Source: a virus
Taxonomy: Duplodnaviria; Heunggongvirae; Uroviricota; Caudoviricetes
Length of the DNA stretch: 38,628 bases
IMG/VR virus record: IMGVR_UViG_2711768037_000009
Coordinates: 1 to 38,628 of that record
Reading direction: 5' to 3' (one strand)
Each line of letters opens with the position of its first letter. Within the stretch, counting starts at the first letter, position 1. Both the position numbers and the translations under genes were made by a program. Positions 1 to 32,823 of the stretch are shown here, in pieces. The notes beneath the pieces were generated by a model, which worked only from the letters and a program-made list of their open reading frames with translations, did not search any database and was not told the DNA's origin.

Positions 1-259
1 TGAAGGTTCTGACAAACTGCTACGCCTGACGCTGGATCTCGGCGGCGAAAAGCGTAATGTCTTCTCCGGCATTCGTTCTGCCTACCCGGATCCGCAGGCA
101 CTGATTGGTCGTCACACCATTATGGTGGCTAACCTGGCACCACGTAAAATGCGCTTCGGTATCTCTGAAGGCATGGTGATGGCTGCTGGCCCTGGCGGGA
201 AAGATATCTTCCTGTTAAGCCCGGATGTCGGTGCTAAACCTGGCCACCAGGTTAAGTAA
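1..259 (+). CDS. metG: 3' end of methionyl-tRNA synthetase (C-terminal tRNA-binding domain); partial, start lies outside window
   Basis: Open frame from window edge to TAA at 257-259; translation ...[85 protein letters not shown] matches my recollection of the enterobacterial MetG C-terminus. Confidence 0.85.
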
Positions 260-279
260 TTAAGCAACCATTCTTCACA

Positions 280-306
280 ATGCCCGGCAATACGCTGGGC
301 ATTTTC
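280..306 (+). terminator. Intrinsic terminator of the metG-like gene
   Basis: Hairpin ATGCCCGG-caatacg-CTGGGCAT followed by TTTT, ~20 nt after the stop codon. Confidence 0.6.
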
Positions 307-341
307 ATATAGACACAACCCCTTCTGATTTACATATGCCT

Positions 342-356
342 AAAACAATTTGTTTT
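342..356. promoter_or_regulatory. Palindromic motif AAAACAATTTGTTTT (AAACA-N3-TGTTT family), copy 1
   Basis: Perfect 15-bp palindrome ~60 nt upstream of the 419 start; same motif recurs upstream of six other genes. Confidence 0.4.
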
Positions 357-418
357 CTGCATTTTGTTAATTGAGATAATAAGCCATATAAGAAAAAAAT
401 TGTTTCGGAGTGGTTGAA

Positions 419-718
419 ATGTTGAACATTACCCAAGCCTACCAGGTGGCATTGATCAGTTCATCTCATACATCAGAGGAAGATGCTCGCCGATTCATGA
501 TCGCAAGCAATGAGCTGGATTGGGTTTCGCAAATTGACGGCGGTTGTATTGTCCACGCAGGGTTACAGGATGATGTCTGGAAAGACAACTTGCGTCGATA
601 TGGTATATCCGAAGACGCAATTGCTAACATTCAGAAAGTACTTGATGCAGGTTTTGACTCCGTACATTTTGATTGTGGTGCGCTGGTCGTTGAAGGGCTT
701 GAGAGTTGGCAATGGTGA
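419..718 (+). CDS. Hypothetical small protein (99 aa)
   Basis: ORF track 410..718; first ATG at 419 preceded by GGAG at ~407-410; no recognisable domain. Confidence 0.55.
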   Translation: MLNITQAYQVALISSSHTSEEDARRFMIASNELDWVSQIDGGCIVHAGLQDDVWKDNLRRYGISEDAIANIQKVLDAGFDSVHFDCGALVVEGLESWQW

Positions 719-1811: not shown

Positions 1812-1830
1812 CATATGCCATTCCCCAAAA

Positions 1831-2700: not shown

Positions 2701-2955
2701 GAACCTACTTACCGCTGGATTCCCTCTGAATGCCCAGTTACAGCGTAATTGTGCCAGACAGCCAACGGGTCACAATCGATTTCAGTAGGTTTTCGGGGAG
2801 ATGATTATTCTGCCCACCAGCCATCTTCGGCCACTAAATCAGAATAATGTAAAAGTGTACTCTGTACTGAACCTGAAAACTCACTGCCAAAACCACATTC
2901 ACCGGAATAAAATCCTTTTTCGCCTGTGCGTTATTGCGATAATAACACCATTAAG

Positions 2956-2968
2956 AAAACATCTTGTT
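2956..2968. promoter_or_regulatory. AAACA-TCT-TGTTT palindrome just upstream of the RBS of the 2982 gene
   Basis: Member of the AAACA-N3-TGTTT family; coordinates +/-2. Confidence 0.35.
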
Positions 2969-2981
2969 TAAGGATTGCTTT

Positions 2982-3311
2982 ATGTTTGCAAATATCGACA
3001 TCAACCAAATTAAGAAATTGACTCAAAAAGAGTTTGACCAGTTTTATGAGCTGGAAGGTTGGTCTTCCACTCTGATTAATTCAAGATGGGTGCTGGAGCT
3101 GATGACTCGTGATGATGCACCTGCTTTGATGATTAGCGACCTGGGTGATGATGCTGACTTTATGGATATGAGCGAATTTTGTGTGGACACATACAACCGC
3201 AGCCAGAAGTACTACTTCACATGCGATAGCGAAAATGACGTGATTTCTAAGGTCTATCTTCACCTCGTCCAGCATTGGGACGTTCAGGAGTTTCTTGAGG
3301 TATTCGCGTAA
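2982..3311 (+). CDS. Small acidic protein (110 aa), function unknown
   Basis: ORF track 2964..3311; ATG at residue 7 preceded by AAGGA; about 21 Asp+Glu against 8 Lys+Arg. Confidence 0.6.
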   Translation: MFANIDINQIKKLTQKEFDQFYELEGWSSTLINSRWVLELMTRDDAPALMISDLGDDADFMDMSEFCVDTYNRSQKYYFTCDSENDVISKVYLHLVQHWDVQEFLEVFA

Positions 3312-3441
3312 CCCCAACCAAAGCCAGCATTGCTGGCTTAATTTCATCTGTAGCCGCAGGGAAGAACCTGCATATCGCTCATGCGCCTGATCAATATGCT
3401 TTGTAGCCGTTTTCTTACTGGTATTATTTACGCAATTGAGA

Positions 3442-3454
3442 AAACAAGTTATTT
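3442..3454. promoter_or_regulatory. AAACA-AGT-TATTT motif (one mismatch) upstream of the 3466 gene
   Basis: AAACA-N3-TGTTT family member overlapping the 5' leader. Confidence 0.3.
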
Positions 3455-3465
3455 ACGAGGTTGTG

Positions 3466-3777
3466 ATGGATAAGTCACTGATACTGGGGCTGGACAAAGA
3501 CCAGAAGAGAAAAGAGAAGCCTGCACTGGTTGCTCAATTAACTTTGCTGGACATCGTTGCCAATGGAACCTCTATTCGTCTGTTCCGTGAAACAGCGGTG
3601 TCTTTCGATAAAAACACTTTTACTCGTTATGTAATGAATGTTCGTCGCCAGCGTGGAAAAGGCTGGATGGCATTTCAAAGAATGTGGCCGGAACATCAGC
3701 TGGAACTGGCTTTGATGGAAGTAAACCGCGTGGCCCAGCAAGAAATTCAGAGAGCATCAGTGATGGCAATAGCCTGA
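3466..3777 (+). CDS. Hypothetical protein (103 aa)
   Basis: ORF track 3436..3777; ATG at 3466 preceded by GAGG. Confidence 0.6.
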   Translation: MDKSLILGLDKDQKRKEKPALVAQLTLLDIVANGTSIRLFRETAVSFDKNTFTRYVMNVRRQRGKGWMAFQRMWPEHQLELALMEVNRVAQQEIQRASVMAIA

Positions 3778-4336: not shown

Positions 4337-4344
4337 ATGCCCGA

Positions 4345-4357
4345 TAACAATTTGTTT
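4345..4357. promoter_or_regulatory. TAACAATTTGTTTT motif, near-identical to the copy at 342-356
   Basis: AACA-ATT-TGTTT followed by the same TCTGC as at 357-361. Confidence 0.4.
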
Positions 4358-4523
4358 TCTGCCTTATCTGATTTGTGAAAATGATTTCACTGAAGCAACT
4401 TAATAAGGAAACCATCATGGACTTGATATCTATATCGAGACGCAGCCTAAAAACGATCTGAATAACGAGGCATCCAGAAAGCAGGTTGCTTACTTCCGTA
4501 AGTTCAATGCGCTCGTTGGGTGG

Positions 4524-4972: not shown

Positions 4973-5110
4973 TTTTAATAACCGAAGGTTAGTTTGAAAC
5001 CTGGCTATCAACTTCCAGAACCTTTCTTGTGTATTCAGCCTGTATTAACTTCTTTTATGCCTTATCTACACTGCGATAATTACACCAACAAGAAAACAAG
5101 AGGAAAGCAG

Positions 5111-5308
5111 ATGAAAACTATTACTCAAGTCCAGCAAATCTGGGCGCAGCTGGCAAATGAGCCTGTGGATAACAATCAGCAGCTTGAGCGCGCATTTCAC
5201 CATTTTGAAGCCGGTGACAGCATCATTGACGTGTGGGTGTGGATCGACGGGCTGTGTCCAGATATCACCGTTGCCCAGTTGCAGCAGGTGGGGAGGCACG
5301 ATGACTGA
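5111..5308 (+). CDS. Hypothetical protein (66 aa)
   Basis: ORF track 4994..5308; ATG at 5111 preceded by AGGAAAG. Confidence 0.5.
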   Translation: MKTITQVQQIWAQLANEPVDNNQQLERAFHHFEAGDSIIDVWVWIDGLCPDITVAQLQQVGRHDD

Positions 5309-5527: not shown

Positions 5528-5604
5528 CCGCAGGCTAAAAACACCAACCTCTTACCTCCAGGCAACCGACAAACCTACCTGTTCCCGTCCGGCTACCGCA
5601 ACTT
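5528..5604. repeat. Iteron-like tandem repeats, cluster 2 (3 copies, same family and orientation as cluster 1)
   Basis: GCAGGCTAAAA, CCAACCTCTTACCTCCAGGCAACCG, CCTACCTGTTCCCGTCCGGCTACCG. Confidence 0.5.
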
Positions 5605-5651
5605 ACCACTTTGACGCCTTATTCGTACAACGATAATTAACACCAGCAAGA

Positions 5652-5664
5652 AAACAATTTGTTA
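5652..5664. promoter_or_regulatory. AAACA-ATT-TGTTA motif upstream of the 5685 gene
   Basis: AAACA-N3-TGTTT family, one mismatch. Confidence 0.35.
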
Positions 5665-5684
5665 TTTACGATAAGGAATTAATC

Positions 5685-6167
5685 ATGAATTTTATCGCTA
5701 CTGTAAACGCACCCGCACATGGCAATATCGCAGTAACGTTCTCTGACATTGAAAAACGAGTACTTGGTGCATGGCGCGACAATGAGACGGTAGAACTGTC
5801 AGCACAAGAAAAATGCATTATTGCACGTGACATCATTGGTAATCGTCGTTACTCGCGGGTATTTGAGAAAGCGTATGTGGTAAATTCTGGATTCGGAACG
5901 TTCGTCTTTCCGGTGCGCTCCGGGCGATTCTGCCAGTCCAAGCTGATTGAGTTCGCTACGCAGATTTCTGTCTGGATTAAAACTCAATCGTCGTTCAAAT
6001 TTTCCGACGATGAAGCAGTATCGCAGGGGATGCAGATCGCCAACAATGCGATTAAATGCAAAAACATTACGTATGCCGCTGGCGTTGACACATGGAAACT
6101 GTTTTGCGCTAACTTTATGCTGAATGTATACGCAAGCAACCGCATCCACATCCTTGATGGCGTGTAA
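5685..6167 (+). CDS. Hypothetical protein (160 aa)
   Basis: ATG preceded by AAGGA at 8-nt spacing; followed by a terminator. Confidence 0.65.
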   Translation: MNFIATVNAPAHGNIAVTFSDIEKRVLGAWRDNETVELSAQEKCIIARDIIGNRRYSRVFEKAYVVNSGFGTFVFPVRSGRFCQSKLIEFATQISVWIKTQSSFKFSDDEAVSQGMQIANNAIKCKNITYAAGVDTWKLFCANFMLNVYASNRIHILDGV

Positions 6168-12527: not shown

Positions 12528-12556
12528 GTAACTACTTAGTGGAATGTAGCAATAAA

Positions 12557-13237
12557 ATGGACGTAAAAATCACGATTTTGCAGGTTGATGTTGCCAACCT
12601 TCGCCCGAATACCTGGAACACCAATTCGGTTGGTGCGCAGAATTTCGAAAAACTGAAAGGTTCTATCGAAAAATTGGGCTTTTTTAAGCCAATTTTGGCT
12701 CGTGAGCTTGAAGATGGATTTTTTGAAATCCTCGGCGGCGAACATCGCTGGCGTGCTGCTATTGAGCAAGGAATTTCAACGGTTCCTGTGCTTTCTGTGG
12801 GCAAAATTAGCGATGTCGTGGCAAAACAGATGTCACTGGTGGACAACGAGCGATACGGTGAAGACGACCAAATCGCATTGCAACGCTTCATTGAAGAAAT
12901 TCAGTCAGAACTTGACTATCAACTGTCTGAAATCGCCCCGTATGACGACGAAATCTCGATGGTTTTAGCAAAAGAGGCGGCAATCGACCTTGAAGCACTG
13001 GAGGCGTTGTCTCGTGGTAGTGATGAGCCTGTCGATACCGACAAACGAGAGAAAACCGAACGTGTGGGTGCGGAACATCAGACCATGCGCTTCAAAGTAA
13101 CTTTCGATGCGTCAGATCGTGTTGCAGAAACCATAAAAAACATCATCAAAGAGCAGGCTATTAACACCGGTAATGAAATGGAGAACGCTGGTGAGGCTCT
13201 GGTGTGGCTGGTCGACTACTACAAGGAGCGTATGTAA
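12557..13237 (+). CDS. ParB/Srx-superfamily (ParB-like nuclease domain) protein 1
   Basis: ORF track 12539..13237; ATG at 12557; ParB-box-like GGEHRWRAA. Confidence 0.7.
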   Translation: MDVKITILQVDVANLRPNTWNTNSVGAQNFEKLKGSIEKLGFFKPILARELEDGFFEILGGEHRWRAAIEQGISTVPVLSVGKISDVVAKQMSLVDNERYGEDDQIALQRFIEEIQSELDYQLSEIAPYDDEISMVLAKEAAIDLEALEALSRGSDEPVDTDKREKTERVGAEHQTMRFKVTFDASDRVAETIKNIIKEQAINTGNEMENAGEALVWLVDYYKERM

Positions 13238-13905
13238 TGACCAAAAAGTTTGAAATCGTATATCGCGACCCGGCAGATCTTATTCCCTATGAGATGAATG
13301 CCAAAAAGCATGATGAACAGCAGATCCGAGATCTAGCCGCAGCCATTAAAAAGCGCGGATTTGACCAGCCAATTACGGTCGATAAGAACGACGTAATTAT
13401 TACTGGCCACGGCCGCCGTGAGGCTGCAATTTTTGCTGGACTTGAGCGCGTACCGGTTATTGTTCGCGATGATCTCAGTGATGACGAGGTTCGTGCGAAG
13501 CGCCTTGAAGATAACCGACTTGCCAGCATTGATTACGATGCAATTAAGCTACAGAAAGAGCTTGAGTCGCTTGTTCTGGACGATATCGAGGTTTTCGGCT
13601 TTGAAGAGCGTGAGTTGAATGTTCTCGTTGGCAGCATGACAGAAGAAATGGACACCGACTCGCTAGTTATCGATCTTGGCGAAGAAACTAAACGACAGAA
13701 GGATGAACACACCGAGATCAGTCGCGAAGTTGCAGCGGAAGAAGTACGTGTTGTCGACGTATTGGGCTTTAAAACGCTTCCTGCTGGCTCTGCCATTGTT
13801 GTTGGTGATTTGCTTGCCCACATGGAAGAAATGACGGGAGAAAGCGGGGTAGACGCATTTGTGGCATATGCGGAGAAGATCTCTTCCGGGGAGATGGCTG
13901 CATGA
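13237..13905 (+). CDS. ParB/Srx-superfamily (ParB-like nuclease domain) protein 2
   Basis: ATG overlaps the upstream TAA; AAGGAG at 9-nt spacing; ParB-box-like GHGRREAA. Confidence 0.7.
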   Translation: MTKKFEIVYRDPADLIPYEMNAKKHDEQQIRDLAAAIKKRGFDQPITVDKNDVIITGHGRREAAIFAGLERVPVIVRDDLSDDEVRAKRLEDNRLASIDYDAIKLQKELESLVLDDIEVFGFEERELNVLVGSMTEEMDTDSLVIDLGEETKRQKDEHTEISREVAAEEVRVVDVLGFKTLPAGSAIVVGDLLAHMEEMTGESGVDAFVAYAEKISSGEMAA

Positions 13906-15961: not shown

Positions 15962-16060
15962 GGTCTGGGACCTTATTTAAAGACCTGCTTCTGTATATAT
16001 AAATAATAAGTAACTTATTAAATATATACAGAAGCAGGCTTAAAAAGACATGCCCAGACC
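15962..16060. repeat. Large quasi-palindrome (inner arms ~15984-16000 / 16022-16038, outer arms GGTCTGGG / CCCAGACC)
   Basis: 17-bp perfect inverted arms CCTGCTTCTGTATATAT / ATATATACAGAAGCAGG around an AATAATAAGTA core; lies between the wHTH gene and terS. Confidence 0.55.
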
Positions 16061-16077
16061 TAATTAAACACCCCAGA

Positions 16078-16090
16078 AAACAAGTTGGTT
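16078..16090. promoter_or_regulatory. AAACA-AGT-TGGTT motif upstream of terS
   Basis: AAACA-N3-TGTTT family, one mismatch. Confidence 0.3.
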
Positions 16091-16102
16091 AGCAGATGCA
16101 GT

Positions 16103-16115
16103 AAACAAGTTGTTT
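16103..16115. promoter_or_regulatory. AAACA-AGT-TGTTT perfect palindrome, followed by hairpin AGAGCGC-atggac-GCGCTCT just before the terS RBS
   Basis: Seen directly. Confidence 0.4.
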
Positions 16116-16155
16116 TAGAGCGCATGGACGCGCTCTGTGTGTTTTAGAGGGATCT

Positions 16156-16788
16156 ATGACTGTCGAAAAAGACGAGGTAAAAACTCGCCTGACACCAGCG
16201 GAGTGGGCCGAAGCTGAAGCCAAATGGACGTCAGGCGAATATACACTCTCAAAGCTGGAGGAAGAGTACGGCATTCGTCGTGAAACACTCTCCAGACATT
16301 TCAAAAAGCGAGGATTAGAGAAAGGCGCGGACTCTGTTGGGAAGATGGTTCGTGAGTCTCTTAAATCTGACGCAGAGCTTCGCGCTAAAGCCCGTGCGGA
16401 AAAGATAGAAGAACGTCGTACACGTTATGACGGCTGGGCGTATGCGTTGGGGCAGATGGTGATGGTCGAAGTCACTACGGCCAAACGTGAGAGAAAGCCT
16501 TTAGGGGCGATTGAGGATTCTCTCAAGAGCTTACAGAGAGCCAGTAATACCCTTGCAAAATGCTTTGAAGTTTCGTCCAAAGCATTGGGCATGGATCATG
16601 CGGAAAATGACGAGGAAGAAATTCCGAACCTGGTATTTGGTGAGCTTACGCCTTCCCAGGTGGCGAAATTACGTCAGGAAGACGACGAGCCTGAAATCAT
16701 CGATGACGAATTGCTTGAGACGTTGGAAGAAGAAGCTCTAAGCGAATTTGATGCGACAGATGATGGAAGTGAAGGGGAGGACGAATAA
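16156..16788 (+). CDS. Terminase small subunit (210 aa)
   Basis: N-terminal HTH-like segment, acidic C-terminal tail, immediately upstream of and overlapping the large terminase; AGAGGG SD. Confidence 0.65.
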   Translation: MTVEKDEVKTRLTPAEWAEAEAKWTSGEYTLSKLEEEYGIRRETLSRHFKKRGLEKGADSVGKMVRESLKSDAELRAKARAEKIEERRTRYDGWAYALGQMVMVEVTTAKRERKPLGAIEDSLKSLQRASNTLAKCFEVSSKALGMDHAENDEEEIPNLVFGELTPSQVAKLRQEDDEPEIIDDELLETLEEEALSEFDATDDGSEGEDE

Positions 16789-18044
16789 TGGCAATCCCGT
16801 CCTCGCTCAGTCTTGTGCAACTGCATTCTGGACAGATGAAAGTCTTCCAGTCTCCGCATCGATTTAAAGTTGTTTGTGCTGGTCGACGCTGGGGAAAATC
16901 CCGGTTGTCGATCTCCACTATTATTCGTGCGGCGGCAAAGGAAAAAAAGCAAAGGGTCTGGTATGTCGCTCCTACTTACCAGATGGCTCGCCAGATTTTG
17001 TGGGACGACCTACAGGAAGTTCTGCCTCGTAAGTGGGTTAGGAAAAAGAACGACACCACGATGACAATCGTGTTGAAGAACGGTTCGGAGATCGCCCTCA
17101 AAGGTGCTGATAAGCCTGACACGCTGCGCGGCGTAGCGTTGCATTTTGTAGTGCTTGATGAATTTCAGGATATGAAGGCTGACACCTGGTACAAGGTGTT
17201 ACGACCTACTCTTTCATCGACACGCGGCGGCGCACTGATCATTGGTACGCCAAAAGGCTTCTCGGAATTTCACAAACTGTGGACTATAGGCCAGAACGTA
17301 GAGCTGCAAAGAAAGGGACAGTGGAAGAGCTGGCAGTTTGTAACTGCCGATTCTCCGTTTGTACCTACGGCGGAAATTGAAGCTGCTAAGAACGATATGG
17401 ACCCCAAATCGTTCGCTCAGGAGTACCTAGCCAGCTTTGAGAACATGTCCGGGCGCGTTTACTACCCGTTCGATCGTAACGTGCATGTAAAACCGCTTCA
17501 GTTCAACCCTCGGTTGCCTATATGGGTAGGGCAGGACTTCAACATTGACCCGATGTCTTCCGTAATTTTGCAACCTCAGCCAAACGGTGAGCTATGGGCA
17601 ATTGATGAATTGGTGCTCTTTTCCTCTAACACGGCAGAAGTGTGTGATGAGCTGGAGAGACGTTTCTGGCGATGGAAATCACAGATAACGGTATTTCCTG
17701 ATCCGGCTGGTGCTTATCGTCAACATGCTCGCGGTGAGTCTGACGTCGACATATTCAAAGAGAAGGGATTCTTGCGTGTCGATTATTCAAAAAAACACCC
17801 GCCAATTGCGGATCGTGTTAATGCAGTTAACCGAATGCTGATGACCGCATCTGGGGATATCAGGCTGTATATCGATCCGAAATGCAAGCATTTGATTGAT
17901 TCGCTGGAAAAGGTCATCTACAAGCCTGGAACACGAGATATGGATAAGACAGGTGGCATTGAGCATAGTGCAGACGCATTGGGCTATCCAGTACATCGTA
18001 GGTATCCAGTAAAAAACCGTGTTATTCTTGGTGGTTCAAGATAG
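16788..18044 (+). CDS. Terminase large subunit (418 aa)
   Basis: Walker A KVVCAGRRWGKS near N-terminus; ATG overlaps terS stop; followed by portal. Confidence 0.85.
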   Translation: MAIPSSLSLVQLHSGQMKVFQSPHRFKVVCAGRRWGKSRLSISTIIRAAAKEKKQRVWYVAPTYQMARQILWDDLQEVLPRKWVRKKNDTTMTIVLKNGSEIALKGADKPDTLRGVALHFVVLDEFQDMKADTWYKVLRPTLSSTRGGALIIGTPKGFSEFHKLWTIGQNVELQRKGQWKSWQFVTADSPFVPTAEIEAAKNDMDPKSFAQEYLASFENMSGRVYYPFDRNVHVKPLQFNPRLPIWVGQDFNIDPMSSVILQPQPNGELWAIDELVLFSSNTAEVCDELERRFWRWKSQITVFPDPAGAYRQHARGESDVDIFKEKGFLRVDYSKKHPPIADRVNAVNRMLMTASGDIRLYIDPKCKHLIDSLEKVIYKPGTRDMDKTGGIEHSADALGYPVHRRYPVKNRVILGGSR

Positions 18045-18070
18045 GTGTGTGGTTATTTAAGGGTATTCAA

Positions 18071-19603
18071 ATGGAATTGAACGACAAACAAATTAAGGAT
18101 CTGGTGGCGCGACGCCACCCGGAATACGAAAAGAAAAAAGAACATTGGGACTTTCTCGCTAGCACCTATGCTGGCGGGCGTGGTTGGTTTAGCGAAAATA
18201 TATTTAGGTACTTTAAAGAGGGCGACCAGGAATTTAAGGAGCGAGTTGAGCGTGCTTATCGATTCAACCACACCCGTGAAGTGGTAAATCTCATTAACAA
18301 GTATCTTTTTAAAGAAGATATTCATCGAAATATTGAAGAATCGCCAGAGCAGATCCGCAATTTCTGGAAACGAGCGACTCGCCAGAATGCCTCTATTGAT
18401 TCATTTATGGCCGCGATTGATTTGCAATCGTCTATATACGGTCGTATCTGGGTTGTTGTCGATAGCACGATGAGTGGTGATGTTGAATCAGTCGCTGACG
18501 AGAAAAAGAAAGATGCTCGTGCCTACGCCTACTGGATTTCACCGCAGCAAATGCTGGATGTGGCATGGGACGACGACGGGAATATGTTATGGGCGTTAAT
18601 TGTGGAAGTCGCTCGTGATGACGCAGATCCTTTTACTTCTACAGGTCAGGAATACCAACGTTATCGTCTTTGGACACAAAACGAGTGGTATTTGTTCCGT
18701 GAGGAAGTGAAGAAGGGCGCTAGTGGAGCAGCTCGTCGTCAGGCAAAAGTTATTTTAGAGGATAGCGACGAGCATAATCTGGGCGTAGTTCCTGTGTTTC
18801 CTGTTGATTGTATTGGAGAAAGTGAATCACCGTATTTCAGCCCATCGTTGATCGATGATATCGCTTATCTTGATCGTGCGGTTGCAAACTATCTGTCAAA
18901 CCTTGATGCCATTATTCAGGATCAGACATTTAGCCAGTTGGCCATACCGGTGCAGTCACTTTTACCTGGTGATGATAATCACACTAAAGTTCTTGAAATG
19001 GGGACAAAACGTGTCTTTACCTACGATTCTGAAGGTGGAAACCAGCCGTTTTATTTATCACCAGACCCTAAACAAGCTCAGATGATCATCACTACGATTA
19101 AGACGGTGATTAACGAAATCTACCATTCAGTTGGTGTAGCTGGCGAGCGAACGAAGCAGGACAACGCACAGGGAATAGATAATTCATCTGGTGCTGCAAA
19201 AATGTATGACTTCCAGCGTGTAAATAGCTTGCTTGTCACAAAAGCAGATCGTCTTGAAAGGGCTGAACGCCAAATCATGCAACTGGTTGCTAAATGGATG
19301 GGGGTAGATCTGGACGAAGATCACTCTCTAATAGCATATCCAGAAAGTTTTGATATTCGCGGGCTTACTGATGAATTTTCTGTTGCGGAGAAACTATCGT
19401 TACTTCAGGCACCGGACTCTGTACGTCGTCAGCAGATGGAAATGCTGATTGAGAAGATTTTCCCTAATATCACTGAAGCGATGAAAAAGGAATTTGATAA
19501 AGATCTCTTGAAATTTCCGCCAAAAAATGATCTTAATGCTCTTGAAAATAAGTCTGTACTTACCTATGATCGCAGTGCTGTCCAAGAAAGCGGACAAAAT
19601 TAA
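18071..19603 (+). CDS. Portal protein (~510 aa)
   Basis: ORF track 18047..19603 (GTG); first ATG at 18071 after AAGGG; size and position between terminase and scaffold. Confidence 0.75.
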   Translation: MELNDKQIKDLVARRHPEYEKKKEHWDFLASTYAGGRGWFSENIFRYFKEGDQEFKERVERAYRFNHTREVVNLINKYLFKEDIHRNIEESPEQIRNFWKRATRQNASIDSFMAAIDLQSSIYGRIWVVVDSTMSGDVESVADEKKKDARAYAYWISPQQMLDVAWDDDGNMLWALIVEVARDDADPFTSTGQEYQRYRLWTQNEWYLFREEVKKGASGAARRQAKVILEDSDEHNLGVVPVFPVDCIGESESPYFSPSLIDDIAYLDRAVANYLSNLDAIIQDQTFSQLAIPVQSLLPGDDNHTKVLEMGTKRVFTYDSEGGNQPFYLSPDPKQAQMIITTIKTVINEIYHSVGVAGERTKQDNAQGIDNSSGAAKMYDFQRVNSLLVTKADRLERAERQIMQLVAKWMGVDLDEDHSLIAYPESFDIRGLTDEFSVAEKLSLLQAPDSVRRQQMEMLIEKIFPNITEAMKKEFDKDLLKFPPKNDLNALENKSVLTYDRSAVQESGQN

Positions 19604-19666
19604 CCCCGAGGGAATGGGGACTCATCTACTCAAGAGAACGAGTGATAAGTAATAAAGGGAACTTTT

Positions 19667-20554
19667 ATGAATTTGTGGCAAATGCTTATGGCCCGTCGTG
19701 GTCTGATGAATGTTGCTGAAGCGCATGAGCGTGGGGGCGCTGGCGGTGTAGCTGCTGATAATGAGCAGAGTACACAAGATCCTGACAAGCAGGGTGAACA
19801 AAAAGAGCAGCCGAAGGGTGATGGCGAATACGCTGGCATGACTCATGAAGAGTTACTGGCCGAACTTCGCAAAACCAAGAAAGCTGGTGCTGAACTGCTG
19901 AAAGAGAACATGAAGCGCAAAGAGAAAGAGCGCACATTGGCCGATCAGCTTGCTCAGTACGGTGATATCGACCCGGCGCGTGCTCGCCAGCTTTTAGAGG
20001 CTGAACAGGCCGCAGAAAACACACGTCGTGAGGCGGAGCAAGCTGAACTGGAGCGTCGTGGTGAGTTCGATGCTGTTAAAAAACAGATGATCGAAGCACA
20101 CCAGGCAGAGCTGGCACAGCGTGACGAACGTTATGCAGCACTGGAAAGTGAAAACGCATCACTGAAATCTCAATTAGTTGAGATGACCGTTGGCGCGTCA
20201 TTTAGTAATTCTGCCTTCCTTCGTGACAAAGTTCTAATGACTCCCGCGAAAGCTCGCGTGATCTACGGTTCTCATTTTGAAGTCGGTGATGACGGTAACG
20301 TAGTGGGTTATGACAAACCGGCAGGCCACAAAGATCGAGCTGTTCTGGTTGACGGTGAAGGAAACACGTTGTCATTTGAATCTGCGATTGAACGCATTGT
20401 GCGGGCAGATCCAGAGGCTGACGCAGTCATGCGCAGCGAAGCCAAACAGGGTGCTGGTTCTAATAGCAAACCAACCCATAAGGTAGTCCAACAGAAGTCT
20501 AAGTCGACGATGGATAAGTTGACCTCTGGTCTTGGGAAAATTGGACTTAAGTAA
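19667..20554 (+). CDS. Scaffolding protein (295 aa)
   Basis: Charged coiled-coil-rich sequence between portal and major capsid gene. Confidence 0.6.
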   Translation: MNLWQMLMARRGLMNVAEAHERGGAGGVAADNEQSTQDPDKQGEQKEQPKGDGEYAGMTHEELLAELRKTKKAGAELLKENMKRKEKERTLADQLAQYGDIDPARARQLLEAEQAAENTRREAEQAELERRGEFDAVKKQMIEAHQAELAQRDERYAALESENASLKSQLVEMTVGASFSNSAFLRDKVLMTPAKARVIYGSHFEVGDDGNVVGYDKPAGHKDRAVLVDGEGNTLSFESAIERIVRADPEADAVMRSEAKQGAGSNSKPTHKVVQQKSKSTMDKLTSGLGKIGLK

Positions 20555-20579
20555 CATCTAAATCAAAGGGAATTGATAG

Positions 20580-21500
20580 ATGCCATTACTGCGTGAAGAA
20601 GCTGAAAAGCTATCCAATAATGAACTTGAACAGGGTGTGATCGAAACTATCATCGATCGCGATGACCTGTTTGCGATTCTGCCTTTTATGAAGATTAACT
20701 CGAAGGCATATCTTTATAATCGCGAAGCAACGCTTAGTGAAGCGACCTTTATTGATGTAAACGATACTATTGCGGAAGGCGCAGCAACATTCAGCGAACA
20801 TGTTGCAAAACTGCGTATTCTGGCTGGTGACGTTGACGTTGATAAATTCTTAGCAACAACTATGTCCGATACTAACAATCAGTTGGCTGTTCAGGTTCGC
20901 CAGAAAGTTAAAGGTCTGGCTCGTGCATTCCGTCGAAATCTGATCTTGGGTAATTCTGAAACTAATACCAAAGCGTTTGATGGTATTCCGCGTCTGATGC
21001 ACAAAGATCAGAAGATCGACATTGCTGGTGCATCTATGACTTTCTCTATGTTCGACGAGCTGGTCGATGCGGTGAAAGATTTGGGTGCTGACTGCATCAT
21101 GATGCGTTCAGAGCACCTGCGTGCTTACCGTGCGCTGCTGCGTACAGTAAACGTAGGCCCGTCTGAAATCATGATGGAGAACTTCGGTCGTCCTATGCTG
21201 TGCCATAATGGCATTCCATTTATTGTTAACGACTTCATTCCTAAAAATGGGGTTAAAGTTACTGAAGATTCAGAGCAGAAAACGGAAGGCCAGGAAGGCA
21301 CTGCTAACATTTATTGTCTGCATTTGTCAGAAGAAAATGGTCTTACCGGTCTGTATGGCGGTGACAATGCTGGTATCGTTGTGGAGAACATTGGCACGGT
21401 ACAGAATAAAGATGCAGTACGTACTCGTGTGAAATGGTACTGCTCTCTGGCGAATAAGCACGATAAGGCTATCGCTGCACTGAACAATGTAAAAATTTAA
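20580..21500 (+). CDS. Major capsid protein (306 aa)
   Basis: Position after scaffold; AAGGGAA SD; followed by a very strong terminator. Confidence 0.8.
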   Translation: MPLLREEAEKLSNNELEQGVIETIIDRDDLFAILPFMKINSKAYLYNREATLSEATFIDVNDTIAEGAATFSEHVAKLRILAGDVDVDKFLATTMSDTNNQLAVQVRQKVKGLARAFRRNLILGNSETNTKAFDGIPRLMHKDQKIDIAGASMTFSMFDELVDAVKDLGADCIMMRSEHLRAYRALLRTVNVGPSEIMMENFGRPMLCHNGIPFIVNDFIPKNGVKVTEDSEQKTEGQEGTANIYCLHLSEENGLTGLYGGDNAGIVVENIGTVQNKDAVRTRVKWYCSLANKHDKAIAALNNVKI

Positions 21501-21533
21501 CTAAAATAATAGGTATGTAATTACCTATGCTTA

Positions 21534-21562
21534 AGGGTGGGCTATACGCCCACCCTTTTTGT
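21534..21562 (+). terminator. Strong intrinsic terminator after the major capsid gene
   Basis: AAGGGTGGGC-tatac-GCCCACCCTT followed by TTTTT. Confidence 0.8.
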
Positions 21563-21597
21563 AGGTTTTAAATATGCCTGTATAGCGAGAAAGCGTA

Positions 21598-22032
21598 ATG
21601 AAACCAGCAAAAATTCGTTTATTGGAACCGCAATTTTCTGATTATTCGGGAATGTTGTGTGGAGTTAAGTTTGAGAATGGGGTATCCGTTTCCGAGTTAC
21701 CTTTTATCGACCAGCAGAGGATTTGTGCATCAATGCGCGCATCAACTGTTGAGGGTAAAAACGTTTCTCCATCTGCTGCATATGGCGAACGTAATGATCT
21801 GAACGTAGATCAGATTGTTGAGCCATCAGCACCTGACATTGTTCCAATGAAGCGCGGAACGGCAGATGAACCAGCTAAACCAATTCAAACTTTCACACGG
21901 GAAGAACTGGAGTCAATTGCTGATAGTGAGGGTATTGCCGGTTTACGTTTAATTGGGAATAAGATTGGTGTTAAGGCGAAAGGAATTGTCGAAATGATTG
22001 ACGGCATCCTGAAAGCACAAGGCGGTGAGTAA
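21598..22032 (+). CDS. Hypothetical head-associated protein (144 aa)
   Basis: Position in head module; C-terminal segment resembles a Rho-N/HeH-like motif (weak). Confidence 0.55.
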   Translation: MKPAKIRLLEPQFSDYSGMLCGVKFENGVSVSELPFIDQQRICASMRASTVEGKNVSPSAAYGERNDLNVDQIVEPSAPDIVPMKRGTADEPAKPIQTFTREELESIADSEGIAGLRLIGNKIGVKAKGIVEMIDGILKAQGGE

Positions 22033-22865
22033 TGGCGCAGATCGACTCGTATCGTAGCGGTGAAGCTGTTTCTCTTTCATTTGCCTTCAACGTGCTGGAT
22101 ATCGAATCTGCCACCTACACAGTAAAGGACAGCACCGGGGCTATTGTCGTTGATGGCGAGCCGCTAGAAATTACCAGCGGTCAAATGTCGATTCCGGTTG
22201 TCGTGTCGGCTGAATATAACCAGCTCTCTGAGAAAGAGCGAGATCTGCGGTACGTCATTGTGAAGGCTGTTGCATCGGGCCTGACGCATGAAGAGCGTCA
22301 AATGTATGTTCTGCTGAATACTTTTGAACTGTCGATACCAGAACAGTCGTTTGCAACTGTCGCTGATGCTCAAATGCAGGCGATCGATATGCTGAATGGG
22401 GACACTTTGCTGTCGGATGGTGAAGGCTTAATGCGCAAGCGTCTCATTGAGGCTACAAGACGTATTAAAACTTTACCGTTCTCAATCCGCAAAATTCTAC
22501 GTATCGACTTTGACCGATACGATCGCCCTCAAAATATGCTGAATGTGTATGACATTCCGTGGGGAGCAGATGGAGCGTACCGGCATGATTTAGTCGATTG
22601 GGAAAAGATGACGCAGGAGAAGTTTGAAGAGTTCCCTGACTACTTCAAAGAAGCGTTAATGCTAGCCGTTGTCAATGAAGCGTGTGAGATAGCAAATGGC
22701 AATGACATCGTCGCAGCACGAGAGGATGGCATTTTGTCAGAATCTATCGGTGAAACGACCAACATGTATCGTACCGGTAAATCAGCAAACGTGCATGTTG
22801 CTCGCAGCACCTGGCGTTTACTGATCCGTTATATAGACAATCGTATGATTGTCCGACGTTCGTAA
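22032..22865 (+). CDS. Hypothetical structural protein (277 aa)
   Basis: ATG overlaps the upstream stop; function unknown. Confidence 0.55.
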   Translation: MAQIDSYRSGEAVSLSFAFNVLDIESATYTVKDSTGAIVVDGEPLEITSGQMSIPVVVSAEYNQLSEKERDLRYVIVKAVASGLTHEERQMYVLLNTFELSIPEQSFATVADAQMQAIDMLNGDTLLSDGEGLMRKRLIEATRRIKTLPFSIRKILRIDFDRYDRPQNMLNVYDIPWGADGAYRHDLVDWEKMTQEKFEEFPDYFKEALMLAVVNEACEIANGNDIVAAREDGILSESIGETTNMYRTGKSANVHVARSTWRLLIRYIDNRMIVRRS

Positions 22866-22936
22866 TGTCTTTCTCATTATTTGGTTTTGGAAGCAATAGT
22901 TTTGGCTGGCAATGAGATCGACAACAGGGAGAGAGC

Positions 22937-23281
22937 GTGAATATTTCATGGCAAACAGAAATTGCGATCTACCGCTTTGGCACAAAGAACGTCTACGGTG
23001 AAGCGCAATTGCAGTTCGTCAGGAAGACGAATGTCGGTGTAGTTAAATTCGAACAGAGTAATGAGAAATCGTCAGTTCGTGCTGATAGCTCTGGTAGTCG
23101 TGGCAAGGCGAGCCTGGAATTGTTTGATGCTGTATTAGTTGTCCCTTTAGAAGCGGCTGTACAACTTGATGATGTGCTGATCCTTGAAGGTCAAAAATTA
23201 AAGGTGTCCAGTGTTCATCGCCGCTGGGGGCTACGAGGAAGACCAGGGCATCTTGAAGTGGGGGCGAATATATGGGTCTGA
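22937..23281 (+). CDS. Putative head-tail connector / head closure protein (114 aa)
   Basis: GTG start preceded by GGGAGAG; position between head and tail genes. Confidence 0.5.
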   Translation: MNISWQTEIAIYRFGTKNVYGEAQLQFVRKTNVGVVKFEQSNEKSSVRADSSGSRGKASLELFDAVLVVPLEAAVQLDDVLILEGQKLKVSSVHRRWGLRGRPGHLEVGANIWV

Positions 23282-23745
23282 AATACGATGCGCATCAGTT
23301 CAAACGTGCGGGTAATAGACTCAACAACAGCCAGAAAGCATTCAAGCGGTATCTTATTCGGGACATGGAAAAGCTGGCGCGCTTGGTTGAGCGTCTCAGT
23401 CGAGCAATGGCCCCGCTGGAAACCGGATCTCTGGAGACTGCCATCTTTGCCAGGGTCATTAAAGAAGGGTATTCAGGGCTACGCATTGAGCTTTCTGTGT
23501 CTGGGGCAAAACCACGTCAGGGCCATCCGGGCGTAGAAGTGGGTGACTATGCTAAGTACATGGAGCTGGGTAAATACCGTCTCGGTTATCTTTCTCGAAT
23601 GAAGAACGTGACAAATCCACCAATTGAAGGTGTAAAACCTCGTGTTGGTCCACACTTTCTGGAAAGAGCGGTGGAAATTAGCGAGAAGCAGTTCTCCGAA
23701 GCGATTATTGAGGCTGCCAGAAAAGCCGGATTTACGAGAGGTTAA
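23272..23745 (+). CDS. Putative neck / tail completion protein (157 aa)
   Basis: ATG overlapping the upstream gene end; position. Confidence 0.55.
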   Translation: MGLKYDAHQFKRAGNRLNNSQKAFKRYLIRDMEKLARLVERLSRAMAPLETGSLETAIFARVIKEGYSGLRIELSVSGAKPRQGHPGVEVGDYAKYMELGKYRLGYLSRMKNVTNPPIEGVKPRVGPHFLERAVEISEKQFSEAIIEAARKAGFTRG

Positions 23746-23746
23746 T

Positions 23747-24130
23747 GTGTTTATTGAAGCATTTGCAAATTTGATGCAGAAGGCAAAAATTGGCACGGTA
23801 GGGACAGACATTTTCTGTCATTACTTACCTGCCAATGTCAAATCCGGTGTCCTGCTTATTAACCCAAATACCGGTATCAGAATCGATCATGAGTTACAAG
23901 GCTTTTATCATGAGTCGTTCACAATCATTGTGCGTGGCTCGTCAATTACAACGACTATTGAGAAAGCGCGTAAGATCATTGATATGTTTCCCGTAGAGGA
24001 AACGGAATCTGGCGGGGTCTATTTTCGACTTGTACGGCCTATGGCTATGCCGGTCGTTTATCCGAACGATGATGGATCGTTAATAGAAGCCGGTATTCCA
24101 GTTGAATTTGCTGGCTATTTATTGAATTAA
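23747..24130 (+). CDS. Putative tail terminator / tail completion protein (127 aa)
   Basis: ORF track 23642..24130; GTG at 23747 after GAGAGG, 2 nt past the upstream stop. Confidence 0.5.
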   Translation: MFIEAFANLMQKAKIGTVGTDIFCHYLPANVKSGVLLINPNTGIRIDHELQGFYHESFTIIVRGSSITTTIEKARKIIDMFPVEETESGGVYFRLVRPMAMPVVYPNDDGSLIEAGIPVEFAGYLLN

Positions 24131-24203
24131 ATAAATAGGTGAGTATATACTTAAATATAGCGCAATGAATGCGTGAAATTAACGGAAAAAGGAGTTTCCA
24201 TCA

Positions 24204-24944
24204 ATGTCTAATACCCATGTAAAAAACATCAAGCTTGGTGCCTGCAAGGTATCATTTGGTGGTGTGGATCTGGGTTACACCAAAGGTGGTGTTCAGGTTG
24301 AAGTAGCCACTGAAACGCTTAAAGTTACAGTCGATCAACAAGGTCAGACTGTAATCTCTGAATTGGTTCAGGGGCGTAACATTACCATTACCGCACCTCT
24401 GGCCGAGTCTGTGCTCAAAAATATGGTCGATCTTATGCCTGGTTCTACTTTGAGCGAAGATGACAACTCCGTCACCATCACATCTGCACAGGGCGTAAAT
24501 CTGATCAACGTGGCGAAGGAACTCGTACTGACACCGCAGGACACCACCGACTATGTGTTGACGCTCCCGAAAGCGGCAACCGCTGGCAACTTCACTATGT
24601 CCTACCAGTCTGATGATGTTCGTGTGTTCTCTGTTCAGTTCAACGCGTACCCTGATGATGAGGGAGTTCTTGGCAAAATGAGTGGCCCAAAACCGGTGAA
24701 AAACGTGACGATTACACCTGAATCTCCGACTGTTAAGGTCGGTTCGACAGTTCAACTGACTGCTAATTTCACCCCAGATGATGCCGGTGATAAAACTGGT
24801 GTATGGGCGTCAGAGGATGATAAAAAAGCCACTGTTGATCAGACTGGTCTTGTGCGTGGTGTGGCACAAGGTTCTGCAAACATATCATTCACCAGCAATA
24901 GCGGTAGCAAGAAAGTAACCAAATCAGTGACGGTTAATCAATAA
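24204..24944 (+). CDS. Major tail protein with C-terminal Ig-like (Big_2-type) domain
   Basis: AAAAAGGAG SD; C-terminal ~80 aa (VTITPESPTVKVGSTVQLTANFTP...) looks like a Big_2 Ig fold, as in lambda gpV. Confidence 0.8.
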   Translation: MSNTHVKNIKLGACKVSFGGVDLGYTKGGVQVEVATETLKVTVDQQGQTVISELVQGRNITITAPLAESVLKNMVDLMPGSTLSEDDNSVTITSAQGVNLINVAKELVLTPQDTTDYVLTLPKAATAGNFTMSYQSDDVRVFSVQFNAYPDDEGVLGKMSGPKPVKNVTITPESPTVKVGSTVQLTANFTPDDAGDKTGVWASEDDKKATVDQTGLVRGVAQGSANISFTSNSGSKKVTKSVTVNQ

Positions 24945-24970
24945 TCAAGCAACTTATTAATCTATAAATT

Positions 24971-24996
24971 GAGGCTCATGATGGGCCTCTCTTTTA
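24971..24996 (+). terminator. Intrinsic terminator after the major tail gene
   Basis: GAGGCTCAT-g-ATGGGCCTC hairpin followed by TCTTTT. Confidence 0.6.
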
Positions 24997-25011
24997 AAAG
25001 GATTTTAACAA

Positions 25012-25329
25012 ATGACAAAATTACTCGATCTCGACTCAATCCTACCTCCTAAAAAAAGTGTCAAATTTTGCGGCCAGGAATATCCTATCGTTGAAATGAC
25101 GGTAGGTCTGTTCGTTTCCATTAAGCAGATGGAAGGTAAAGATCTGACCAATATGTCTCCTGTTGAGCAAGTGACAGCTTATGCAGATCTGGTTCGCAAG
25201 ATTATCCCTTCAGTGCCCGACGAAGTTCTTGAAAAACTGACTGTTCCGCAACTTCAGCAGATCTTCACCTTCGCTATGGAAGTGATTGATGAAGAAAACG
25301 AAAAAGCGGCTGGCGAAGGGGCAAAGTAA
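25012..25329 (+). CDS. Tail assembly chaperone (lambda G-like), 105 aa
   Basis: Small acidic protein immediately upstream of the tape measure gene. Confidence 0.7.
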   Translation: MTKLLDLDSILPPKKSVKFCGQEYPIVEMTVGLFVSIKQMEGKDLTNMSPVEQVTAYADLVRKIIPSVPDEVLEKLTVPQLQQIFTFAMEVIDEENEKAAGEGAK

Positions 25330-25679
25330 TTTCCCGCGATGAATCCGGGACAAGGACCGTCTCAATAGATCTCGGATTCTATTTCAGTCGTGTAGTTGCT
25401 CACTACGCCGTGTCGCCGTTAGAACTACTGAACATCCCTCTCACGATGTTCTGGATGCTCAGTCGCAACATCGACCGTCTACGTGCGGAAGAGGATGTCC
25501 GCAACCTGCAAGTTGCTCGCGCTGCTCAGGCAGATGGCGAGGGCGTGAAGGCGTTCATGGAGGGTTTGCAACTCAGGATTGGAAGACCAGTCGTAACAGA
25601 TAAAGTCTACGATCCAAGCCAGGACAGGGCAGACCCTGACGCCAAAGAGCAACTGATGCAAATATTTGGCAGAGGATGA
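25293..25679 (+). CDS. -1 frame extension ORF (lambda T-like part of a G-T fusion chaperone); no own start
   Basis: Frame opens at ~25293, overlaps last 36 nt of the G-like gene, ends 8 nt before the tape measure ATG; A-rich GAAAAAG at ~25300-25306. Confidence 0.5.
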   Translation, partial: RKRKSGWRRGKVISRDESGTRTVSIDLGFYFSRVVAHYAVSPLELLNIPLTMFWMLSRNIDRLRAEEDVRNLQVARAAQADGEGVKAFMEGLQLRIGRPVVTDKVYDPSQDRADPDAKEQLMQIFGRG

Positions 25680-25686
25680 CAAGGGA

Positions 25687-28600
25687 ATGTCACAAAACGT
25701 AGAGTTTATCCTGTCGCTGGAAGACAAACAGTTTACAGCGTCAATCGATCGTGCGGGAAAACTGCTTACTCGATTTGGTGAGCAGGTAACAAAGCCTGCT
25801 CAAAAAATCCAAACCTTTGAACGCTCTTTGGGTTCGGTCGCCCGTATCATTGGCGTTCTGGAAAGCAAGCTCGATTCTACGGCAGATAAACTACAGGATG
25901 TAGCTGTCGGTTTTGAGCTTGCTTCAGATGCTACGCGTAAAATGCGTGGCAACATCACCAGCCTCAATTCTGGTCTTAAAGCTCTGATTGAGCGCGTCGA
26001 TACGACAACTTCTTCAGTAGGTAAACTCACCGCGTCATTACGTAAAGTGCAATCAGAGCTAAATGATTTCTCTGATTGGGCGACGTATGCAAGCAAAAGC
26101 GCAAACCGCTTTGGTACGGAGGTCAAAGAAGCCTCTGCGTCCGTGAGTGGCATGAATACGCGCCTTAATACCACGACGAAGCGACTCAGTAATTGGGGTG
26201 TCACAACGAGTCAGGCTGCCGAGGGACTGAAAAAGGTTCGTGAGCAGATGGACGAAGTTATCGGACGTCAGCAACTGATTAGCAAGCCGGTACGCGTTCG
26301 TACATCTGGAAGTGGCGATGGTGGTAGCGGTAGCGGGCAGCGTAGCGGCGCTTCTGGCCATAACGGTAAAAATAACGAAGGAGGTATGTTCTCTGGCCTT
26401 CGTGGCAACATTTTCCTGCTTGGCGAGATCGGAGATGCAGCCAGAACGGTTACTGACATCATGTTTGGGTGGCAGAAGCCTATTGTTGAAGCTGCGGCCG
26501 AAATGGAACGTATGCGGGTGATGCTTCGAGGGTTGAATAAGGAGAAGTCCAACCCTGGCCAGGCTGCCGCTGATGATATGAAGTACATCGTAGACATGGC
26601 TCAAAATGCGCCGTTCGCGATGCAGGCGTTAACAGACTCCTTCGTGAAGTTTCGTTCTGCTGGCTTAGATCCAACCGATGGTTCTCTGAAGGCGCTGGTG
26701 GACTCCGTTGCTCGTTTTGGTGGTGATAGTGAGCTGTTGAAGCGTGCATCCATTGCGATCCAGCAGATGTCCGGTAAGGGCGTCGTATCTATGGAAGAGC
26801 TTCGCCAGCAATTAGGTGAAGCTGTTCCTAACGCGATGCAGGCAATGGCAGACGCCGCAGGCATCACTATGGGGGAACTTACTAAAGCCGTTGCCAGCGG
26901 TACGGTTGAGGCAAAACATGCCTTGTCTCTGATGTTTGTTGGTCTGCGTGCGGAGAATGAGAACGCAGCGAAAGACATGATGCAAACCTACACAGGTTCG
27001 CTGGCGCAACTTCAGACGTCATTCACGTTATTTGCTGATCGGGTTGGTCAGGCCGGATATCTGGATTCTCTATCGAAGGGGATGAAAGAACTGGCTTCAA
27101 TCATGAATAGCGCCGAAGGGATTTCGTTTGCCAATTCTTTAGGTTCGGGGTTAACGACGGCAATCGATGGGTTGCGTCAGCTTGCTCAATGGTTAGCAAA
27201 GAACCAAGAGCTGGTAATTAATCTCGGTAAGGTCGTGGCTGCGATGGTTGCGTTCAAACTGATGCGAGCAGGGATCATGGGGGTAGTTGGCGCAGGCAGC
27301 CAGATGGTTAGCACCTTTGCCACGATGGCGACCGCCATACAGACTCCATTTAACCTCGGCGCTACAGCAGTAACTCGATTCAATCGTGCGGCACGTATGG
27401 GGCTGGCTCCGATCCCCTCTCTTATTTTCGCCATCCGTGGGGCGATTACGGGGCTTAAAGGCGCTTTTGCTGGATTAACGGCGTTCATTGCAGCAAACCC
27501 TATAGGGGCAGCATTTACAGTTGCCACTGTAGCTGTTGCTGGCCTAATCACGTACATGACCATGCTCCGCAGCGAAACTTCAAAGGTCGTTGACGAGATT
27601 AGGAAAATACCAGAAGCGATGACAGCGGCCAAACGTGCACAGATGGCGGAGTATAAAGCGCGTCTTGAGCAACAAATCACGCAAAAGGAACAAGAGTTAA
27701 AATCTGGCGAAAAGGTGGTTTATGGGCCGGGTATGGCCGGAACTACAGTAAAGATTAATCAGGATGAACATAAGCGTATAGAAAATGAGCTAAATGACCT
27801 TCGTAAGAAACGCGATAAAACTACTGGGGCAATTGAACGCGGAGACATTGCCGTAGCCAAACGTCTTGCAAAAGATGCGGCAGAATCACAGATAGAGAAA
27901 ATACGGGAAGAGAATAGAGACTTTGCGGCAACATTCGCTAAAGCTCGTCAAGAGGCTCTGGAGAAGATCCAAAAAATCAATGATGACGATTCACTTTCTG
28001 ATGACGAAAAGAACAAACTATTGGCACCGTTACGTGAAACGGTAAACAAAAGCTATCTGAAACCAGCGCAAGAATGGGTTGATTCACTTTCTTCTCGTAA
28101 GAATGCTGTCGAGGGGCAAATAGCCACTCTTAATGATCAGCTTGAAAAAGCGAAAAAGGAAGGAAACACCGAGCAGATCAAGAAACTGCAAGGAAGTATT
28201 CGTGGTTATCAGGAGAATTTGGAAGTCGTCGCTCAGGAACTGACTCAGGCAGAGTTCGAGAGAGATAACGCTGCCAAAACTGGTAAGGGCGTAATGTCAA
28301 ACCAGGGGACTGTTCTTGGGTTAGGTACAACTGATAAAGCTGCTCAGAAGGCGTTGGCGCAATATATGCGAAACCAGATGGATTCTGCGACTTATCAGCG
28401 TACTTTGCCTGACGGCACTCCGATGATGGACTTCGAAGGTAAGCCGATTATTGGGCCTAAACAACTCAAGACGCAGCTTAATTTGCAGAAAGCATCCAGT
28501 GCCAGCTCTCTGGAGAAAATGAGCGATGAAGAGCGTGCCGCAGCCATTGCCGCACTGACTAAAGCTCGTGAACAGGATGCCGCAGCCGCCGAGAAAGCAG

Positions 28601-30258: not shown

Positions 30259-30299
30259 CTATAGACGGCCCCAACGGGGCAGTCTCACAAGGATGTGAG

Positions 30300-30635: not shown

Positions 30636-30669
30636 GTGTCTGGATAAGTAAATGCTAATTTACTATCAT

Positions 30670-30705
30670 GATGGTGATGGTGATGGTGATGGTGATGGTG
30701 ATGGT
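30670..30705. repeat. Hexanucleotide microsatellite (GATGGT)x6 in the M-L intergenic region
   Basis: Six perfect tandem units ~35 nt upstream of the L-like ATG. Confidence 0.8.
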
Positions 30706-30740
30706 GTCCTGCCAGCACCACTTATTTCAAGGATGAAACA

Positions 30741-32807: not shown

Positions 32808-32823
32808 TCAAGGATTTTTGGAC

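Follow-up and report, generated by a model that had tools for sequence, protein, structure and literature searches.

An extra copy of metG has been described on the SSU5-like phage-plasmid pWPMR2 of Shigella sonnei, and also in E. coli lineages, according to two papers (PMC12452169; bioRxiv 10.1101/2025.09.12.675607) that cite Tam et al. 2024 (medRxiv 10.1101/2024.10.27.24316207) on this point. In this literature, the pWPMR2 copy is reportedly associated with antimicrobial survival in epidemic S. sonnei (PMC12452169). An integrase is dispensable for phage-plasmids (PMC7969092). Among the described relatives, Cyrano (pLF82) is an inducible siphovirus that produces virions and is maintained at ~5.5 copies per cell (PMC9928086).

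The stretch of DNA analysed here, referred to as the window, comprises 38,628 nt in total, opens inside a metG gene and passes into phage-type DNA. The original prediction, made from its letters only, had recognized this passage and offered several explanations for it: a host-to-prophage junction with its integration module further on, a degraded prophage, an assembly join or a phage carrying a host fragment. The comparison with complete genomes, plasmids and phage records makes it very probable that the window derives from an SSU5-supergroup phage-plasmid carrying a captured apbC–metG cargo island. The coordinates of its features are collected in Table 1.

Table 1. Positions of the features discussed in the text, numbered from the first nucleotide of the window.
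Feature	Position	Strand	Content and basis
metG 3' end (methionine-tRNA ligase, phage-plasmid-borne)	2..259	+	Last 85 codons; C-terminal tRNA_bind domain (PF01588, E 6e-22); TAA 257-259
Chromosome-like metG tract with the look of recombination/gene conversion	2..166	+	6 mismatches to K-12 vs 15 to pOkiPb01698_2, all at third codon positions
Phage-plasmid-specific metG allele, junction-proximal	167..259	+	0 mismatches to pOkiPb01698_2; 10 to K-12 (89% identity)
Orphan spacer with the cargo/backbone junction	260..335	+	Alignable neither to the sampled chromosomes nor to the metG-less phage-plasmid; 75 nt
Intrinsic-terminator-like hairpin of metG	279..308	+	10-bp stem 279-288/294-303, loop 289-293, then TTCAT
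Backbone promoter/operator cassette (predicted)	336..410	+	O1 343-355; extended -10 TGaGATAAT 372-380; O2 393-405; GGAG 407-410
First backbone gene past the junction, DUF5983-family protein	419..718	+	PF19419, E 3e-11; annotated in relatives
Cassette copy	2899..2984	+	Repeats, palindrome, alignment
Cassette copy	3384..3466	+	Repeats, palindrome, alignment
Cassette copy, upstream half alone well conserved	4338..4425	+	Repeats, palindrome, alignment
Cassette copy	5036..5114	+	Repeats, alignment
Cassette copy	5594..5687	+	Repeats, palindrome, alignment
Two ParB-like genes	12539..13905	+	PF02195, E 3e-13 and 1.5e-8; ParB/RepB/Spo0J annotation in relative; plasmid-type partition signature in the window
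Cassette-like site	16020..16118	+	Palindromes 16078-16090 and 16103-16115; directly ahead of the packaging/structural operon
SSU5-type packaging, head and tail module	16156..38628	+	Terminase, portal, major capsid protein, 1,530-aa tape measure, TipJ, tail fibre (collagen-like repeats); annotated in pOkiPb01698_2; SSU5 ~80% nt

Identity of the replicon

The whole window is collinear with a circular E. coli plasmid of 108,543 bp, pOkiPb01698_2 (NZ_AP042587.1, 74829 down to 36182), at 99.05% identity, and the phage records CMS-2020a, PhiR41_1 and Cyrano match it at 94–96%. Relatives of the window are closed circular records of 100–115 kb, which serve as a proxy for the circular state of the window's own molecule; PhiR41_1 and CMS-2020a were deposited as phage genomes. 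Salmonella phage SSU5 shares ~80% nucleotide identity across the head genes (window ~16021–24938, or 15722–24639 in a query that began at window position 300). The sister plasmid pOkiPb01698_2 encodes a RepB-family initiator, located outside the window, and two ParB-like proteins, together with RecA, DnaE, a DnaB-like helicase, a ligase, NrdAB, ThyA and a full siphovirus virion module. An SSU5-homologous virion module and plasmid replication and partition functions are found on the same collinear replicon.

A search of 5,426 complete E. coli genomes found the segment 262–1450 in 220 of them, at 222 places, and all 222 are on plasmids; chromosomal copies in these genomes amounted to zero. The window is part of an SSU5-supergroup phage-plasmid, which is extrachromosomal and not a prophage. 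In the proposed mechanism, a temperate siphovirus would persist as a low-copy circular plasmid of ~108 kb, without integration. A degraded prophage is unlikely, given the full packaging, head and tail module in the window and the production of virions by the relative Cyrano (PMC9928086).

The absence of an integrase, excisionase, repressor or tRNA from the window, as stated by the original prediction, was confirmed. No tRNA was detected in the window by ARAGORN, no Rfam family reached the gathering threshold, and the annotation of the 99%-identical plasmid shows neither integrase nor excisionase over the corresponding span. The sole regulator in the window (8235–8756, minus strand) is FljA-like (PF03614, E 5.7e-81) and not a CI-type repressor.

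Cyrano (pLF82), PhiR41_1, CMS-2020a and pOkiPb01698_2 resemble the window in having a collinear backbone at 94–99% identity, and the tape measure of Cyrano, with 1,525 amino acids (PMC9928086), is close in length to that of the window. Unlike these relatives, the window bears local allele swaps in the metG 3' end, the FljA-like regulator block (7751–8750) and the tail-fibre repeats. With 157 mismatches in 1 kb, the regulator block, which contains the FljA-like 'repressor of phase-1 flagellin', alone stands out as strongly divergent between the window and the sister plasmid. This suggests an allele swap of the regulator, and the annotation raises the prospect that it might act on host flagellin. 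In the tail-fibre gene (38110–38628), collagen-like Gly-X-Y repeats with an 18-nt register form a divergence hotspot between the two plasmids.

Outside the window, the sister plasmid carries, at 18628–22602 and 96036–102706, a tyrosine recombinase gene beside an HTH gene, tRNA genes for Ser, Thr, Tyr and Asn, dfrA51, thyA and nrdAB. The dfrA51 product is a trimethoprim-resistant DHFR; with thyA, nrdAB and the tRNAs, it makes up a large host-like metabolic and translation set besides metG.

The apbC–metG island and the history of its metG

The coding end of metG is intact in the window. Since the window opens within this gene, the side upstream of it (apbC, humD) was read from relatives, in which the full-length metG is a 2,034-nt ORF of 677 amino acids with 6–10 substitutions relative to K-12. 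The fragment in the window is 92–94% identical to the E. coli chromosomal gene, and a chromosomal metG copy is kept in all 5,426 E. coli genomes. The gene order in four relatives is toprim, humD, apbC (on the opposite strand), metG and then DUF5983, sometimes with DUF1380 before it. The apbC (mrp) gene is divergent from metG, as on the E. coli chromosome, and phage-plasmid genes lie on both flanks.

The homology to K-12 within the pOkiPb01698_2 excerpt is confined to the segment bounded by the stop codons of apbC and metG (positions 4975–8260 of excerpt L001). The idea of a phage carrying a host fragment is thus the one among the original explanations that was borne out: the chromosome-type homology covers apbC–metG only, with phage genes on both sides in relatives. 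The GC content of the island (50.5–52.6%) exceeds that of its flanks (44–46.6%), and the host-type intergenic region between apbC and metG is kept in relatives, in a diverged form. At the left end of the island, also read from relatives, the P1-like humD homology ends at the humD stop codon and is followed by an orphan hairpin spacer of 37 nt and then by apbC.

At the right end, the original prediction of a metG-like gene end with a terminator near 306 agrees with the stop codon and with a hairpin at 279–303. This hairpin has a folding energy of -16.9 kcal/mol (z -4.3 vs shuffles), and in PhiR41_1 a T-to-C change turns its G-U pair into a G-C pair, strengthening the stem. It was not listed by a terminator scan of positions 1–7300, and its U-tract is short.

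These data would make window positions 1–335 the rightmost part of a ~3.4-kb cargo island made up of the divergent apbC and metG genes, the promoter region that they share and terminators of their own. The island would have been taken from an enterobacterial chromosome into a variable region between the P1-like toprim/humD module and small backbone genes. Transcription of metG would start at a host-type promoter and stop at the hairpin, and ~35 nt further on the backbone would restart with a promoter flanked by two 13-bp palindromes. Morons, as defined for lambdoid phages, are autonomous promoter–gene–terminator units between phage genes. The apbC–metG island looks like such a moron, cargo that is complete in itself, with a predicted terminator and, presumably, promoters as well.

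The toprim/humD module to the left of the island (3699–4930 of excerpt L001) shares ~86–92% identity with the region around humD in P1-like phage-plasmids, which have phd/doc and Lpa downstream. From this similarity it follows that the island adjoins a segment exchanged between two major groups of enterobacterial phage-plasmids. Plasmids with toprim and humD and without metG were considered as an SSU5-type empty site and rejected, as they proved to be P1-like phage-plasmids (phd/doc, Lpa).

The different parts of the island differ strongly in their closeness to E. coli. The apbC gene is ~82% identical to Escherichia and Citrobacter alike, with the other sampled genera no closer, and no locus among the 80 enterobacterial metG loci listed matched apbC above ~82%; these 80 loci define the donor comparison, and some Escherichia species may lie outside this sample. 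The apbC–metG intergenic region is barely alignable to K-12 (58% identity in one 150-nt bin that spans the start of apbC and takes in the greater part of the region). The metG gene is 93–96% identical to K-12 overall, with long tracts at 98–99% and a 3' end at about 90–93%. In pOkiPb01698_2, the central 900 nt of metG (6626–7525 of excerpt L001) match many chromosomal alleles of E. coli at 99.9%, with flanks at ~88–95%; besides pOkiPb01698_2 itself, all 29 other records among the matches listed for this tract are chromosomes.

A switch of allele partner is also present in the window (Table 1) and places a recombination breakpoint at 166–187, about 70–90 nt before the stop codon. The chromosome-like tract of the window still has at least 5–6 mismatches to the sampled E. 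coli, so the strongest evidence for gene conversion is that of the sister plasmid and not that of the window. Among four phage-plasmids, metG differs by 4.5–6.5% and the linked apbC by 0.5–3.5%. Despite 77–141 nucleotide differences from K-12, metG in these four phage-plasmids has 6–10 amino-acid changes (S112T, S319T and R538K being common to all four), which indicates purifying selection on what would be a working enzyme.

It is proposed that the cargo may have been acquired long ago from an enterobacterial donor outside the sampled genomes, and that the chromosomal metG copies of the hosts may since have converted the plasmid gene repeatedly. The direction of conversion would be from the host chromosome to the plasmid metG, and apbC would escape it because it is too divergent for efficient recombination. 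The alternative of a recent, direct pick-up of metG from a present E. coli host, by aberrant excision or specialised transduction, would account for the central parts of metG that match E. coli chromosomes at up to 99.9%. It is nevertheless very improbable, as it leaves unexplained the low identity of apbC, the intergenic region and the metG 3' end given above, the two terminator spacers, which are unlike E. coli, and a junction DNA that is common to plasmids of E. coli, S. sonnei, E. albertii and E. fergusonii.

The cargo/backbone junction

The chromosome homology of the window stops at position 260 in every match listed from a search of 5,423 E. coli chromosomes. The SSU5-like plasmid cM2a p1, which lacks metG, has unrelated genes upstream and aligns with the window from ~336; the part common to both comprises the motif described below and then DUF1380 and DUF5983. 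From these two limits the junction lies within 260–335. This is in keeping with the original estimate (~307–340, at most ~80 bp from the metG stop), and the comparison with the metG-less cM2a p1 gave a start of the shared backbone near the estimated boundary. The GC content falls at the junction from 54% (1–259) to 42–44%.

The spacer between these limits is an orphan in wider comparisons too. The segment 260–420 had no BLAST match in the 80 enterobacterial metG loci listed, which were fetched by protein, and the 22-mer GGGCATTTTCATATAGACACAA from the spacer had no exact match in 185,579 species-representative genomes. The simplest reading is that both orphan spacers of the island would be the donor's own terminators, in which case the true junction would fall between about 304 and 336.

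The K-12 DNA located 23–73 nt downstream of metG (L003 5357–5407) aligns with window positions 314–367 with a local score of 30. Shuffled sequences gave 15.9 ± 2.4 (0 of 500 reached 30) and 76 real metG-downstream regions gave 18.0 ± 2.5, with a maximum of 26; the aligned sequence is T-rich and of low complexity. The end of the spacer and the first half of the promoter cassette thus resemble the DNA past the K-12 metG terminator. This likeness could be a microhomology involved in the capture or a chance match in T-rich DNA, and it is not counted as evidence.

The first alternative concerning the junction itself, an integrated prophage with its left att site just downstream of the chromosomal metG and its integrase at the far end, was the leading one in the original prediction. 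It draws on the status of metG as an E. coli housekeeping gene, on the identity of the fragment to the chromosomal copy and on a tyrosine recombinase found ~17 kb past the window end in a relative. These points are outweighed by the rest of the data, and an integrated prophage is very improbable. None of the matches listed for the 5,423 chromosomal metG loci continues past 260, the DNA that follows (262–1450) is never chromosomal, and the junction-proximal 93 nt of metG carry the plasmid allele. Furthermore, the relatives are closed circles, with phage genes beyond apbC–metG, and the replicon has RepB and ParB.

A tyrosine recombinase and four tRNA genes do lie ~14–17 kb past the right end in the sister plasmid. 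This sole tyrosine recombinase lies ~55 kb from the junction, inside the closed circle and not at an att site, and the expectation of an integration module beyond 38.6 kb was not borne out. The proposed search for attL/attR found no long repeat of 307–340 besides the dispersed promoter motif. Replication as a plasmid accounts for the lack of an integrase or att site nearby, as none would be needed. An assembly chimera of a chromosomal metG contig and a phage or plasmid contig, to which the sharp drop in GC and homology at 260 could point, has next to no probability, because the join recurs in about 200 independent closed plasmids and in independent phage records, and the metG allele is plasmid-specific. 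At least 80% of the junction query is covered in 200 records of E. coli and in 174 PLSDB plasmids.

The phage-plasmid junction is like the att junction of a temperate prophage at a housekeeping or tRNA gene in that host-like DNA gives way sharply to phage-like DNA no more than 80 nt from the end of a gene. Unlike such a junction, the window and its relatives have no chromosomal context, adjacent integrase or att duplication, and they belong to a plasmid replicon. For genome scanning, the lesson is that a housekeeping gene running into phage DNA without an integrase is a reason to look for a phage-plasmid first, and to call a prophage junction or misassembly only afterwards.

The palindrome-bearing cassette and comparison with known systems

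The original observation of a motif at ~342 that recurs through the phage-type region proved accurate, with a cassette that begins at 336. Two families of direct repeats cover it: D5, found at 339, 2902, 4341 and 5039, and D4, which occurs seven times. The core of the motif is a 13-bp palindrome, AAACAAnTTGTTT, with nine matches in the window vs 0.3 expected (343–355, 393–405, 1771, 2957, 3442, 4345, 5652, 16078 and 16103). In the whole of NZ_AP042587.1 there are 18 sites vs 0.44 expected, one of them upstream of humD. The apbC–metG island, itself without the palindrome, lies between two palindrome-bearing promoter-like sites.

Eight candidate copies of the cassette were aligned, and six of them (those that start at 336 to 5594 in Table 1) are well conserved. 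These six copies share a layout consisting of a T-rich -35-like element, an extended -10 element (TGnGATAAT), AGAAAACAAnTTGTTT about 10 nt further on, and then a ribosome-binding site and a start codon. The junction copy has a second palindrome (343–355) over its -35 region. A promoter scan of positions 1–7300 found 10 sigma-70-like sites vs 12.6 in shuffled sequence, without enrichment, so the promoter reading rests on the repeated architecture of the cassette. The palindrome is probably the operator of a phage-plasmid-wide regulator that has not been described. One candidate for this regulator is the HTH protein WP_137522680.1, encoded beside the tyrosine recombinase of the sister plasmid (18247–18633 of NZ_AP042587.1).

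Between positions 1431 and 2960 (~1.5 kb), relatives have no annotated CDS and no Rfam match was obtained. This segment contains short dispersed repeats (D6, D7, D10 and D16), an example being GGGAAAAGGCTGCATCCCGCTACAAAAACGGCTGGGT, present twice at a distance of 75 nt.

A joint reading of the cargo and the cassette, to which we give an even chance, would make the phage-plasmid metG a hotspot of gene conversion with the host metG, and the last ~90 nt of the gene, apbC and both spacers relics of the unsampled donor. In the same reading, AAACAAnTTGTTT would define an undescribed repressor regulon of ~18 promoters across the plasmid, with the island escaping it as an unrepressed moron. If so, these phage-plasmids could shuttle metG segments between Escherichia and Shigella lineages.

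Phage-plasmid-borne metG has already been published, and what may be new is limited to the pattern of gene conversion and the probable operator found across the plasmid. The limits of the island with orphan spacers on both sides, the signs of conversion between plasmid and chromosome and the palindrome bracketing the island could be useful for studies on the expression and evolution of this clinically relevant metG cargo.

Like phage morons, the island has a host-like GC content, its own predicted terminator and a retained host-type promoter region, is located between two phage transcription units and is missing from a related genome (cM2a p1). Unlike morons, which carry one small accessory gene, it comprises two divergent housekeeping genes.

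The closest likeness is to the pWPMR2 type: both belong to the SSU5 supergroup in Escherichia/Shigella, and the metG of the window would likewise be an additional copy. In PLSDB, plasmids of S. sonnei (e.g., NZ_CP034066.1) have the same order of toprim, humD, apbC, metG and DUF5983 and match the window at 94% over the junction. The best match for window positions 1–262 among complete E. coli genomes reaches 96.2%. The window is another member of the pWPMR2 group with its own metG allele, which differs from that of the S. sonnei plasmid by 14 mismatches in the last 259 nt.
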